Positions 22,901 to 63,901 of a stretch of 64,000 nt of DNA are shown in pieces (the first letter of the stretch is position 1; each line of letters opens with the position of its first letter). The DNA comes from Candidatus Micrarchaeota archaeon. Its GTDB lineage: Archaea; Micrarchaeota; Micrarchaeia; Anstonellales; Bilamarchaeaceae. The notes under the pieces are model-generated. The model did no database searches. It was given only the letters and a program-made list of their open reading frames with translations, and had not been told where the DNA came from. The position numbers and the translations under genes were made by a program. The stretch spans positions 196,452 to 260,451 of the forward strand of contig JBBSVO010000006.1 of NCBI GenBank assembly GCA_038046805.1, in the 5' to 3' direction.

Positions 22901-24151
22901 TTATTTGGTCGTCTCTGCTTTATTTAGTATTTCCTCCATATTTTTCTTGTCATCCTCGCTTATGTTCTGCCCGGTGGTGTTCTCCTTTGTAGGATTTTCG
23001 AACGGTTCATCACTTTGTTTTATCGTAGTCTTGTTTGTGGTGGCAAACTCCTCGCACATCGCAACCTTGGTGGAGTTCATTATACTGCTGCATATACTGG
23101 CGTTTTTCATTGTTCCGCCAAGTTCAATGTAACAATCGTCTTTTATGCCAGATTCGGTTACGAGTTTGCATATTCCAGTGTCTTTAGCCATTATTGCTAA
23201 ATTGAGAATGCAGATATTCTTTCTTCCACCGGCAAATTCGCACAGTTCAAGGTTTTCTTTGTCCAATGCCATAGAATAAACGCATTTATCATGTTCTATT
23301 CCCTCTTTTTCAAGGCATGCTATAAACGCATTCTGGTCATCGCTTGCAGCCTGAAGCAGGGTGACGGCCTTTCCGGCAGTCAGGTTCTCCGGAACTATTA
23401 TCTCCTTATCATATTTCCAATCGGATGAAACAAGATTCCATTTACTCGTGCGATCCTTTCCAAGATAATTATATGCGAATTCCTTAGAGATAATTTCGTT
23501 CTTTTCTTCGTTATAACATAGTTTACTTTCGTATCTCTTTGGATCTCCCTGTCTTACATTAAGGCTCATCGCCTCGCTTAAAGTAAGGTTTGAATAGTCT
23601 ATAACAAAGTTTACTTCCGAGCATTTTTCTCCTTTTTCCGTGGTTTCAATAACCTCCTCAAACGTAATGGTGTTTTTTCCCTTCAGGAATTCAAATGTTT
23701 CCTTTGCAGAATCTATCTTTTCGTTGCTGAAAAATTGCCCTCCAATCACCTTTAAGTATTTCGAGAGGGCTGCACTGGTGTTTTTTACAGAACTGCAGGC
23801 ATATTCATCTTCATATTCTACACACATTACCGTGTCGTTTTCCGCAAAATAAATATTTCTTTCAGATATTGGAGTTTCTATAGTTACCTGGCGCACTGCT
23901 CCGTTCTTGCGAAGTGTTGTCCTCATGACATATTCATCAAGCGTTTCGTCATAGGCATATTCGTAATCTGTTGCGCCCTGGCCAACAAGAAGGCTTTTTT
24001 CATATATTTCAAGCGCATTGCCTGTGCTATCTTCTCCTTCACCACCGTGTTTTTGAAGGTTCGGAAGTGCATACATATAAACCGCATAACCTGCGGCAAG
24101 GAAAACGATAATCCCTAAAACCACCAGCAAAATATTTTTTACATCTGTCAT
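22901..24151 (-). CDS. Membrane-anchored extracellular protein with C-terminal Cys repeats
   Basis: N-terminal TM helix after MTDVKN, and repeated C-x(6-9)-C motifs (KDTGICKLV..KDDCY). Confidence 0.7.
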   Translation of the reverse strand: MTDVKNILLVVLGIIVFLAAGYAVYMYALPNLQKHGGEGEDSTGNALEIYEKSLLVGQGATDYEYAYDETLDEYVMRTTLRKNGAVRQVTIETPISERNIYFAENDTVMCVEYEDEYACSSVKNTSAALSKYLKVIGGQFFSNEKIDSAKETFEFLKGKNTITFEEVIETTEKGEKCSEVNFVIDYSNLTLSEAMSLNVRQGDPKRYESKLCYNEEKNEIISKEFAYNYLGKDRTSKWNLVSSDWKYDKEIIVPENLTAGKAVTLLQAASDDQNAFIACLEKEGIEHDKCVYSMALDKENLELCEFAGGRKNICILNLAIMAKDTGICKLVTESGIKDDCYIELGGTMKNASICSSIMNSTKVAMCEEFATTNKTTIKQSDEPFENPTKENTTGQNISEDDKKNMEEILNKAETTK

Positions 24152-24207
24152 AAGATAACCTCTGAACATTGGCTTTTTATATTTCTCATCTGTGCTTAAA
24201 AAGTTAT

Positions 24208-24609
24208 TGCAGGGGACAGGATTTTCAATTACCACGGGAGTATCACGCCTACGTTTTTCTTTTGGCGTGTCAGGAACGACCGACAAAACGACGCTTCGTT
24301 TTGTGGTCCATAAAACGTTACGACGTTTTATCGGACGCATCGTTCCTGAGCATGTTCAAGAACGAAATGTCGTTCTTGACATGAAACCCTCAGACCTTTT
24401 CTTTTTTAAAAGAAAAGGGGTATGGGTTTGAACCTGTGAAGACGCTAGGTCATCAGATTTCCTATCCCGCATTCGGGAAAAGAACAAACGAGATCTTGAG
24501 TCTGACGCGTTTGACCGTTGCGAAACCAGTTTCCAGTTGCCTGTTTCCAGTTCCCAAAACGCGAAACTGAAAACCCTAGACAGAAAACTGACTTCTCCGC
24601 CACCCCTGC
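24208..24609 (-). tRNA. tRNA-Leu(CAA) with three introns (24518-24594, 24459-24494, about 24222-24426)
   Basis: Four exons join to GCAGGGGTGGCGGAG|CGGTCAAACGCGTCAGACTCAAG|ATCTGATGACCTAGCGTCTTCACAGGTTCAAA|TCCTGTCCCCTGCA, an 84-nt cloverleaf with variable arm. Confidence 0.88.
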
Positions 24610-24669
24610 GCATTATATTTGCTTTTTGCCGCACCACATTTTAAAACCTTGTTAGTCTATCATCTACTC

Positions 24670-25863
24670 ATGGCAGAGCCACTATGGTTCATTGAATACC
24701 CAGTATCATTCATCTCAATTTTCGTAGCCGTATTTTTCACACTGATTTATCTGAAGAATTTCAATAGGATGGAACACAAGTCAAAGCAGGCGCATGGCTG
24801 GGAACCAAAAATAACAATTCTCATTCCTGCTTACAATGAGGAGAATTCTATAGCTGCATGTTTAGATTCAGTTCTGGCATCAGATTATCCTCGGGAAAAG
24901 ATGGAAATACTTGTTCTGGATGACGGTTCTACTGATAAGACTGCAGAGATTGCCAAGCGTTATTCAACACATGGGGTAATCGTCTGCTCAAAAGAAAACA
25001 CTGGAAAAGCAGACTCTCTTAATTTCGGAATAAAAAAATCAACAGGAGAAATAATTGCAACGCTTGATGCGGATTCGTTTATAAGTCCATATTCCATACG
25101 CAGAATGCTTCCATTGTTTGAAGATGAGACTGTTGGAGCGGTTGCTTCTGCAGTTAAAGTGAAAAAAGCAAAAAACCTATTGGAGGAGATCCAGCGCATA
25201 GAATATCTTTTTGCATTATTTTCCCGCAAGGTTGTCAGCTTTATCGAATCCGTGCAGGTAACCCCCGGACCGTTTTCCATGTTCCGCAGATGGATTTTTG
25301 ACAAGGTCGGCGATTTTGATACAAAGAGCCTTGTTGAAGATCAGGAAATAGCACTGAGAATCCAATCTCATCATTACAAAATACGCTGCTCTCTCGATGC
25401 CGACGTTTTCACCGAAATCCCACGCACGTTCCTTGACTTGATGAAACAGCGCACCAGATGGCAACGCGGAGGGTTCTGGAACTCATTAAAATATCTTAAA
25501 ATGATTAATCCAAAATACGGGGATCTGGGAATGATTATTCTTCCGTTCGGTGTGTTTGGATATCTGATGCTTGTCATCTTCCTTGTGCTTGCGGTGTACT
25601 ATATGTTTTATGGTTCTCCCTATCAGGAAGCGCTTAGCTATGATTCCTATCTGCTGGCATTCCGCGAGCTTCATGTTTTCGGAATTCTTATGATAGGCCT
25701 TGCGTTCCTGTGGCTGTTCTATGGGATGGGGAGGCTTTTCCGCGAGCAGGAGCTGCATCCAGTGTCAATCTTTTTATATATCATACTATATCCTATGTTG
25801 ATAACGTTATTTTGGTTCTCCGCAGCGTATAAAGAGCTGCGCGGAGAGGGTTTCTCGTGGTAG
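24670..25863 (+). CDS. GT2 processive glycosyltransferase (cellulose synthase/PgaC-like)
   Basis: IPAYNEE, DDGSTD, GKA, DAD, ED and QRTRW motifs, plus TM helices. Confidence 0.9.
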   Translation: MAEPLWFIEYPVSFISIFVAVFFTLIYLKNFNRMEHKSKQAHGWEPKITILIPAYNEENSIAACLDSVLASDYPREKMEILVLDDGSTDKTAEIAKRYSTHGVIVCSKENTGKADSLNFGIKKSTGEIIATLDADSFISPYSIRRMLPLFEDETVGAVASAVKVKKAKNLLEEIQRIEYLFALFSRKVVSFIESVQVTPGPFSMFRRWIFDKVGDFDTKSLVEDQEIALRIQSHHYKIRCSLDADVFTEIPRTFLDLMKQRTRWQRGGFWNSLKYLKMINPKYGDLGMIILPFGVFGYLMLVIFLVLAVYYMFYGSPYQEALSYDSYLLAFRELHVFGILMIGLAFLWLFYGMGRLFREQELHPVSIFLYIILYPMLITLFWFSAAYKELRGEGFSW

Positions 25864-62839: not shown

Positions 62840-63901
62840 ATGACTATGGCCGTACGCTCATCTTTCTTTGAAATCTTCGGAAGGCTCTTATCCAGAGAGC
62901 AGATACGCGGCATAAGCAAGCACCTTTCAGCAGCAGGCATAGAATACTCGGCAGAGGCATTTGCAGGATACTTTGTCCTTAACGTGGTTATTCTCACTCT
63001 TTTACTTGCATTTTCCATTTGGTATGTTCCTTCTCTCAATAAACTGGTGTTCGGCCTTGTTCTTGTCGTACTGCCAACTGCATATGCAGAAGTTGTTGCA
63101 ATAATGTCTGTGATGCTCGCAGTGTTCGTAGTATTTTTTGTTCTATTCTTCGTTCTGTCCTCTGTTCTTATAGTTATGACCGAAGCGCGCAGAAAGGCAC
63201 TCGAAGCAGCACTTCCAGACTTTCTCATGCTTGTTGCAGCGAACATCCGCGCAGGAATGCCGCTTGATCAGGCGATGTGGTATTCTGCAAAACCGGATTT
63301 TGGTTTAATCTCAACAGAAATAAAAAGTATAATCAAAAAATCATTCAGCGGAAGTTCTCTTTCATCAGTGCTTGACGAGCTTTCTGAAAGATTTGATTCA
63401 AAGGTTTTTGCAAGAACTGTCTCATTGATAAAACAAGCATCTAATACTGGTGGAGAGCTTTCAGAAATACTTGAACGCACTTCTCAGGATGCGCGCAATG
63501 CGCTTTTAATGAAAAAGGAAATCTCCGCCTCTCTAGTGCTATACGAAATTTTTGTATTCTTTTCCGCTGCGATAGGAACTCCATTCCTGTTTTCAGTTTC
63601 ATCAAAACTTATCGGAGTTCTTGAAAAGGCATTTACCTATCTCCCAGCCACAAAAACATCTGTACAGCAATTTTCATTCTTCAAGCCAGTTGCCCCACTG
63701 GTTACTTCAACGGAATTTTATTATTTCACCTTGGCAGCCCTGCTTGTAACAGCAATCTTCTCATCATTCATCATAGGTGTGATTCGCACAGGTTCAAAGA
63801 ACGAGGGAATCAAATTCCTTCCGTTTGTTGCGGTGAGCGCGTTTATAGTTTATTTCATTGTGTCCACGCTTTTGGACACGTTCTTTTCAAGTATTTCTTG
63901 A
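62840..63901 (+). CDS. Type II secretion system F (TadC) membrane protein
   Basis: LPDFL...AANIRAGM...A......FG...E, TGG.L..IL, plus TM helices. Confidence 0.9.
   Translation: MTMAVRSSFFEIFGRLLSREQIRGISKHLSAAGIEYSAEAFAGYFVLNVVILTLLLAFSIWYVPSLNKLVFGLVLVVLPTAYAEVVAIMSVMLAVFVVFFVLFFVLSSVLIVMTEARRKALEAALPDFLMLVAANIRAGMPLDQAMWYSAKPDFGLISTEIKSIIKKSFSGSSLSSVLDELSERFDSKVFARTVSLIKQASNTGGELSEILERTSQDARNALLMKKEISASLVLYEIFVFFSAAIGTPFLFSVSSKLIGVLEKAFTYLPATKTSVQQFSFFKPVAPLVTSTEFYYFTLAALLVTAIFSSFIIGVIRTGSKNEGIKFLPFVAVSAFIVYFIVSTLLDTFFSSIS

Follow-up and report, generated by a model that had tools for sequence, protein, structure and literature searches.

Can 84 nt of tRNA sequence spread over 402 nt of genomic DNA still be a working gene, and where did the sequences that interrupt it come from? 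The question is raised by positions 24609–24208 (minus strand) of the window, the whole 64,000-nt stretch of DNA analysed here. A sequence-only reading had proposed that this locus is a tRNA-Leu(CAA) gene divided into four exons by three introns, and had given positions for each of them. The locus is confirmed as a real tRNA-Leu(CAA) gene with three introns, of 77, 36 and 205 nt, at tRNA positions 15/16, 37/38 and 59/60 (Table 1). When the exons are joined in silico, ARAGORN calls tRNA-Leu(CAA) with a full cloverleaf, in which the acceptor, T and anticodon stems (7, 5 and 5 bp) are all complete. The layout was also recovered blindly: a spliced aligner, run over the non-coding half of the genome with the 45 tRNAs of the relative G031 as templates, returned the gene with these three introns at a score of 55 bits. 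With the sequence reversed, the Leu(CAA) template scored 6.9 bits, and none of the 45 exceeded 20.4 bits. The four-exon proposal is borne out by both approaches, as is the expectation that standard finders would miss the gene, since ARAGORN reported 0 tRNA genes in the window and Rfam (RF00005) no tRNA match. Three matches from a relaxed Rfam search of the window lay below threshold and were rejected as chance.

Table 1. Features of the tRNA-Leu(CAA) locus in the order of transcription, in window positions
Feature	Positions	Strand	Basis or remark
TATA-like box, putative promoter	24639–24646	−	about 30 nt upstream of the tRNA; function putative, from sequence
Exon 1, tRNA positions 1–15	24595–24609	−	spliced alignment and ARAGORN
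Intron 1, 77 nt, 15/16, HBh′ type	24518–24594	−	hairpin of degenerate heptamers (family D)
Exon 2, D-arm to position 37	24495–24517	−	anticodon CAA at 24498–24496
Intron 2, 36 nt, canonical 37/38	24459–24494	−	probably the old intron of tRNA-Leu(CAA)
Exon 3, positions 38–59 with variable arm	24427–24458	−	5′ strand of the intron 3 central helix at 24432–24429
Intron 3, 205 nt, 59/60, hBH type	24222–24426	−	longest of the 68 reliable introns of this genome
Family A element, 5′ part, U-rich/A-rich hairpin	24382–24426	−	copy of the Cys intron
Repeat B1, 58-nt hairpin doublet with ends TGTC...GACA, 5′ part	24336–24381	−	profile search of the genome
Repeat B2, 56-nt hairpin doublet	24280–24335	−	sits in the loop of B1's second hairpin
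Repeat B1, 3′ part	24268–24279	−	sequence comparison
Family A element, 3′ part	24252–24267	−	comparison with the Cys intron
Gene-specific tail of intron 3	24222–24251	−	3′ strand of the central helix at 24227–24224
Exon 4, positions 60–73	24208–24221	−	CCA not encoded

The TATA-like box recurs in the congener G001 as an identical motif in identical placement; a scan for sigma-70 promoters and terminators, whose model is unsuited to archaea, gave 0 sites. A listed 479-aa ORF (22901–24340, minus strand) that runs through intron 3 was rejected as a chance extension, since the gene of the congener begins at the codon that corresponds to 24151. The likely gene from 24151 (minus strand) encodes 416 aa and has no NCBIfam match. 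An intact tRNA-Leu(CAA) elsewhere would have weakened the case for this one; none was found among the 41 tRNA loci rebuilt from the assembly, which is 86% complete, so that a second Leu-CAA gene could be unassembled. UUG accounts for 3133 of the 227046 codons in long ORFs.

The rarity that had been implied for such a gene was overstated. Of the 41 tRNA loci in this genome, 40 are interrupted (Ser-GCU alone is uninterrupted) and six carry three introns; in a relative, a T-loop intron reaches 229 nt. Rfam tRNAs above the cut-off number 4 in this genome, 5 in G001 and 45 in G031. The spliced aligner recovered 40 loci here; the forty-first, the three-intron Pro-CGG, was spotted by eye through a repeat match. 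Asn-GUU, His-GUG, Arg-CCG, Glu-CUC and Ser-GGA were not found in the non-coding half of the genome, whether whole, split or permuted; the best score in the search for these five was 18 bits, under the null maximum. The reliable introns, a set that excludes Val-GAC (two inserts whose junctions cannot be fixed), Pro-CGG and two false Ala-GGC calls, number 68 and have a median length of 59 nt. Ten of them reach 100 nt and five exceed 129 nt, the upper end of the archaeal range of 11–129 nt reviewed in PMC4090602 (section 4). A single similarity cluster holds 30 of the 68 (78 links, vs 0–1 with shuffled queries).

Per genome, Rfam detects between 1 and 44 tRNAs across 36 members of the family, with 12 or fewer in 15 genomes and at least 30 in 11. 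A heavy load of tRNA introns seems to be patchily distributed inside this one family, and with 12 or fewer Rfam tRNAs in 15 of the 36 genomes, tRNA sets are probably badly under-annotated. Such under-annotation bears on the scoring of genome quality and on reports that tRNAs have been lost. A correlation over the 36 genomes between fewer Rfam tRNAs and more locus matches (rho −0.52) was given no weight, because kin are non-independent and matches favour close kin.

The genome encodes proteins suited to splicing of a known archaeal kind. It has one splicing endonuclease gene, whose 393-aa product aligns over its full length to PDB 4fz2 (E 1e-137). The equivalents of K161 (the specificity-loop Lys) and of the triad Y236, H251 and K282 are identical (residue numbering as in the accessible text of PMC3488258). 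The full-length match and these residues together indicate the epsilon2 type, a three-unit chain of about 390 aa, which answers the question, left by the sequence-only reading, of which EndA type the genome carries. Cleavage of relaxed motifs by an epsilon2 endonuclease in vitro is described only for ARMAN-2 (PMC3488258). The enzyme type also suggests an archaeon of the Micrarchaeota kind. An RtcB ligase is also encoded (E 7e-166).

The junctions carry the corresponding motifs. Intron 1 has a GCGG/TCGC central helix with 4/4 pairs, an intron stem of at least 10 bp and an outer helix h′; the BHB-like junction with a long intron stem that had been claimed for it is present. Intron 3 has a TTCA/TGAA central helix (4/4 pairs) and an outer helix h, and intron 2 pairs at 3/4 in the central helix and has both outer helices, h and h′. 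For intron 3, three sequence-equivalent junction registers exist, among which helix geometry selects 24426–24222, at position 59/60. Genome-wide, the central helix pairs at 4/4 in 16 of the 21 introns in D-loops, 10 of the 25 at anticodon sites and 9 of the 16 in T-loops; when intron ends were swapped between tRNAs, the respective means were 3.2, 2.5 and 2.9 (0/5000 permutations each), an excess that is somewhat inflated because registers were optimised for best pairing only in the real pairs. Introns at other positions show no central-helix excess (1/6, p 0.7). That related introns bear tails matched to their respective host exons is a sign of selection for splicing.

Equilibrium folding speaks against these motifs. 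In the model, none of the three central helices is predicted to form in the full precursor (probability about 0), and forcing all three costs 19 kcal/mol. In the same model the central helix of intron 2 stays near 0 in every splicing intermediate, and the 5′ bulge of intron 3 is predicted to be paired into the family A hairpin. The predicted probability of the intron 1 helix is 0.63 without intron 3, and that of the intron 3 helix is 0.37 after intron 1 is removed. These modelled probabilities of the intermediates suggest co-transcriptional, ordered splicing. Intron 3 itself has a much more stable fold than shuffled versions of it (z = −7.5, 0/200).

As far as sequence comparison can tell, intron 3 corresponds to a copied tRNA-Cys T-loop intron that carries a 114-nt, two-level repeat insert. 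Without the 114 nt (24381–24268), its first 61 nt agree with the Cys intron at 60 positions. The insert consists of repeat B1 with repeat B2 nested inside it (B1[B2]), which supports the earlier suggestion that the introns are long because they absorbed genomic repeats. The 3′ tail of intron 3 is not alignable to that of the Cys intron and pairs 4/4 with exon 3. The parts of the intron recur in the genome. Family A has four tRNA copies, all in T-loops and all in sense orientation, and five clear intergenic copies. B1 occurs at 13 loci (2 in tRNA introns, 11 intergenic) and B2 at 21 (3 in tRNA introns, 16 intergenic, 2 in ORFs). Another element, family C (about 80 nt), is found 17 times in tRNAs, always in sense orientation and in D-loop, anticodon or T-loop positions, and twice in intergenic DNA. 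The repeat-family profiles gave 0 matches on the reversed genome. The heptamers of intron 1 (family D) have weak matches elsewhere (E 0.005–0.02).

The empty B1 hairpin is present, letter for letter, in G001. A B1[B2] composite identical in make-up is also present in an intergenic stretch of contig C3; the cassette may thus have been inserted as a finished unit. B1 has the short terminal inverted repeats of a MITE (TGTC...GACA), and two empty sites show either no target duplication or an unassignable 2-nt overlap. No direct repeats flank intron 3.

Copies outside tRNA genes have further features of their own. Intergenic A and C copies with exact direct-repeat flanks of 17–64 nt are found at C2 38826, C3 36603–36784, C7 19677 and C3 78010, and several of these flanks are AT-rich and promoter-like. 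A family A copy lies directly 3′ of two tRNA-Val genes (C6 88248 and C2 about 39067). Two related intergenic elements (C2 about 63200–63560 and C4 about 105200–105560) have a long bounding inverted repeat with B hairpins inside.

Comparison with relatives suggests an order for the introns. The Leu-CAA exons of G001 are 99% identical to those of this genome, and the introns differ. G001 has no intron 3 in Leu-CAA and does have an A intron in tRNA-Cys, which makes Cys the likely donor; with two genomes compared, loss of intron 3 in G001 is a possible alternative to gain. Its 15/16 intron is 48 nt long and 51% identical to intron 1. The 13 orthologous pairs contained in 17 G001 loci were compared (a Phe row, at 84% exon identity, was dropped). 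Their exons are 93–100% identical. Of 28 intron sites, 9 are occupied in just one of the two genomes; among the 19 shared sites, 7 show no more than 55% identity. A wider orthologue survey covered 30 loci, 20 of them with the Leu-CAA gene. The 37/38 intron is present in every one of the 20, and in several genera its 3′ half is related. A T-loop intron of 24–205 nt is present in 13 (one read by eye) and absent in 7, and only two of the others resemble family A. The 15/16 intron is present in 3 of the 20.

The tRNA-Ala(UGC) gene of two relatives has T-loop introns of about 177 nt (G002, L118) and about 229 nt (G035, L117 1523–1751). Each begins with family A, and a hairpin insert of 48 nt accounts for most of the difference between them; on comparison of the two, the same growth pattern appears to have arisen independently. 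The idea that 205 nt is a length record was rejected on account of the G035 insert of about 229 nt.

One RNA run (a metatranscriptome) is among the 20 sequencing runs listed, and it yields two contigs on 23700–25100. An RNA contig of 201 nt (depth 3.1) lies on 24417–24222 with its last 5 letters unaligned; DNA contigs of three runs, one of them from the RNA run's study, cross 24222 unchanged. This single contig, leaving the genome at the 3′ end of intron 3, hints at an excised 205-nt circle; circularisation of excised archaeal tRNA introns is described in PMC3326292. Exon–exon joints were not found in the contigs of four runs including the RNA run, and contigs cannot show absence. Half or more of the sequence words of the locus are contained in 13 runs, and DNA contigs match it without substitutions over 23700–24416 and 24405–25100 (X4), 23727–24387 (X8) and 24122–24365 (X10).

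The locus is very probably a functional, protein-spliced tRNA-Leu(CAA) gene with a history of intron copying and insertion. A precursor of about 410 nt would be cut by the homodimeric epsilon2 endonuclease at relaxed bulge–helix–bulge motifs, probably stepwise and with intron 1 first. RtcB would join the exons, and the introns would leave as circles, as in known archaeal splicing. Intron 2 would be old and intron 3 young. To form the latter, a family A intron would have been copied from the tRNA-Cys T-loop into that of Leu(CAA), the copy would have acquired a tail pairing with the local exon, and a ready-made B1[B2] cassette, common between genes, would then have inserted into it. The cell may tolerate such an insert since it folds on itself and the endonuclease recognises nothing but the junctions. 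For the spread of B, our bet is DNA-level insertion, because B sits both in and outside tRNAs and shows no clear target duplication. For A, we would bet on gene conversion from tRNA to tRNA or on an RNA route; gene conversion between tRNA loops is the plainest account of the Cys-to-Leu copy.

Were the gene instead a pseudogene inactivated by its insertions, UUG would be read by tRNA-Leu(UAA) or by an unassembled gene. The folding model, which disfavours the splice motifs, would fit this, as would the spliced junction not being seen in the contigs of the RNA run, the presence of Leu-UAA and the 14% of the genome still missing. Yet the exons are intact and 99% conserved, the promoter-like box is conserved, the junction helices co-vary with host exons genome-wide, and with 40 of 41 loci likewise interrupted the cell must splice them; inactivation is very improbable. 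Scarcely credible is an assembly artefact in which repeats were collapsed into the tRNA gene: the Cys copy does cause contigs to break within the A hairpin, but contigs from other studies match unsubstituted over the boundary of intron 3 and exon 4, over the B1/B2 joints and from exon 3 into A.

Other alternatives concern how the repeats moved. Families A and C could be RNA-level mobile elements, whose excised circles re-enter pre-tRNAs or insert via reverse transcription, sometimes outside tRNAs. The sense orientation of their tRNA copies (17/17 for C, 4/4 for A) is consistent with this, as are the exact direct repeats of 17–64 nt around five of the seven intergenic copies (a count that includes two neighbouring ones; the background maximum was 11 nt in 300 places), the RNA contig resembling excised intron 3 and an encoded reverse transcriptase. 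The only reverse transcriptase found, however, belongs to a diversity-generating retroelement and is frameshifted in a poly-G run; enzymes of this class copy their own template repeat. The sense bias could, moreover, stem from gene conversion or selection, and intron 3 itself has no flanking direct repeat. An RNA-level origin is held to be unlikely. An outside chance is given to the broader idea that A and C are non-coding mobile elements living under the cover of tRNA splicing, with sense insertion in tRNA loops, stable circles and spread via RNA. If true, A and C would be safe landing pads for smaller hairpin elements and a live archaeal route of tRNA intron gain, able to exceed the published three-intron limit. 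For the B repeats, a REPIN-like mode in which they are moved by the genome's single Y1 (HUH) transposase is decidedly doubtful. The genome has one PF01797 gene, and copies of both B1 and B2 lie no more than 250 nt from its start. HUH chemistry inserts without target duplication, and insertion of B without a clear duplication is compatible with it. But the enzyme scores as IS200/IS605 TnpA (103 bits, cut-off 55), its identity as a RAYT being rejected (22.7 bits, cut-off 80), and the transposon's own end hairpins differ from B. Y1 was found in only 11 of 36 family genomes and was not found in the B-matching genomes G026, G035 and G016, which are incomplete, and close homologues (L084, L085) have the same end without a B-type insert. 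Read by eye, the Y1 neighbourhood has B copies in this genome and B-type hairpins in L097 and L087.

The diversity-generating retroelement (L105, C11 460–2581) adjoins tRNA-Gly(CCC); a frameshift within a long run of G divides its reverse transcriptase, and a template repeat near 1600–1690 and a variable repeat in a 235-aa gene were read by eye. The IS200-type element (L075 1381–2170, on C3) contains tnpA only, has hairpin ends and carries B1 and B2 as passengers in its leader; a second copy of its end lies at C11 1–55.

Read as a protein-spliced gene with a copied and enlarged intron, the locus shows splicing of a known kind; the make-up and turnover of its introns are new. The following comparisons go by the accessible text of the cited articles. 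ARMAN-2 (Ca. Micrarchaeum acidiphilum) likewise has multi-intron tRNAs, relaxed hBH introns at 59/60 (PMC3239211) and an epsilon2 enzyme with the Lys and the triad. In contrast to ARMAN-2 as described (PMC3239211, PMC3488258), nearly all tRNAs are interrupted here, introns reach 205 nt and repeats are shared with intergenic DNA. In Thermoproteales, similar introns occur in unrelated tRNA genes at several positions, with up to three per gene (PMC4033280, PMC4090602), and the closely similar introns of different tRNA genes here (60/61 nt between Leu and Cys) resemble these. The present lineage and enzyme type are, however, independent; donor and recipient can be ordered with the help of the congener, intron copies also lie outside tRNAs, and the introns nest further elements. 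The mechanism of archaeal tRNA intron gain and transposition is stated to be unknown in PMC4090602. Intron numbers are about 73 at 41 loci here vs 71 at 46 in Pyrobaculum calidifontis (PMC8450103). In the Asgard Atabeyarchaeia and Freyarchaeia, 92–95% of tRNA genes are interrupted, more than half with multiple introns that are often non-canonical (PMC11291895); this near-total interruption, with many multi-intron genes and non-canonical positions, is shared with the present genome, and introns as long as 205 nt or four introns in one gene may occur in these Asgard lineages as well.

The inserted repeats also have counterparts. B1 and B2 resemble REP, BIME, REPIN and MITE elements in being short, multi-copy, mostly intergenic and mutually nesting hairpin doublets; unlike in REPIN systems, a RAYT-class transposase was not found in the genome, and there is no clear target duplication. 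In the accessible text of one survey, the IS200 subclass is the only one of the Y1 enzymes reported from archaea (bioRxiv 10.1101/279083). Intron 3 is long and structured like the tRNA-Trp intron that nests a box C/D guide RNA (PMC4090602, PMC3326292), from which circle persistence is also known. A box C/D guide-RNA intron was nevertheless rejected for intron 3, which differs in having neither a C box nor an Rfam match; its absence from the congener makes a conserved guide role unlikely. A literature search that covered few subscription journals returned no report of Micrarchaeota tRNA introns built from dispersed repeats. Here a single gene supplies the donor, the recipient, an empty congener site and two nested later insertions. 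Intron gain thereby becomes testable with strain genomes and groundwater RNA, and the gene shows how tRNA introns can spread and enlarge.

Several tRNA genes of this genome and its relatives have unusual architectures. Published accounts give archaeal tRNA genes up to three introns (PMC8450103, PMC4033280, in their accessible text). The Leu-CAA orthologue of G004 (L030, 1445–1679, minus strand) has four, of 48, 14, 30 and 59 nt; their removal leaves an 84-nt Leu-CAA, with helices checked by eye. Short repeats of neighbouring exon sequence are present inside the 37/38 intron of tRNA-Met in G001 (L129) and inside the D-arm intron of Leu-CAA in G028 (L013), as insertion with target duplication would leave them. 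The tRNA-Ala(GGC) gene of this genome is permuted (C4 76300–76042, minus strand; L107, L110): positions 60–73 lie 16 nt upstream of positions 1–59. The break is at 59/60 with a 4/4 central helix, introns are present at 15/16 (83 nt) and 37/38 (88 nt), and ARAGORN calls the joined form Ala-GGC. The permuted layout is common to G001 (L111) and G021 (L112), and the gene is not permuted in G024. Permuted archaeal tRNAs with a break at the same position are described in Thermofilum pendens (PMC3218864).
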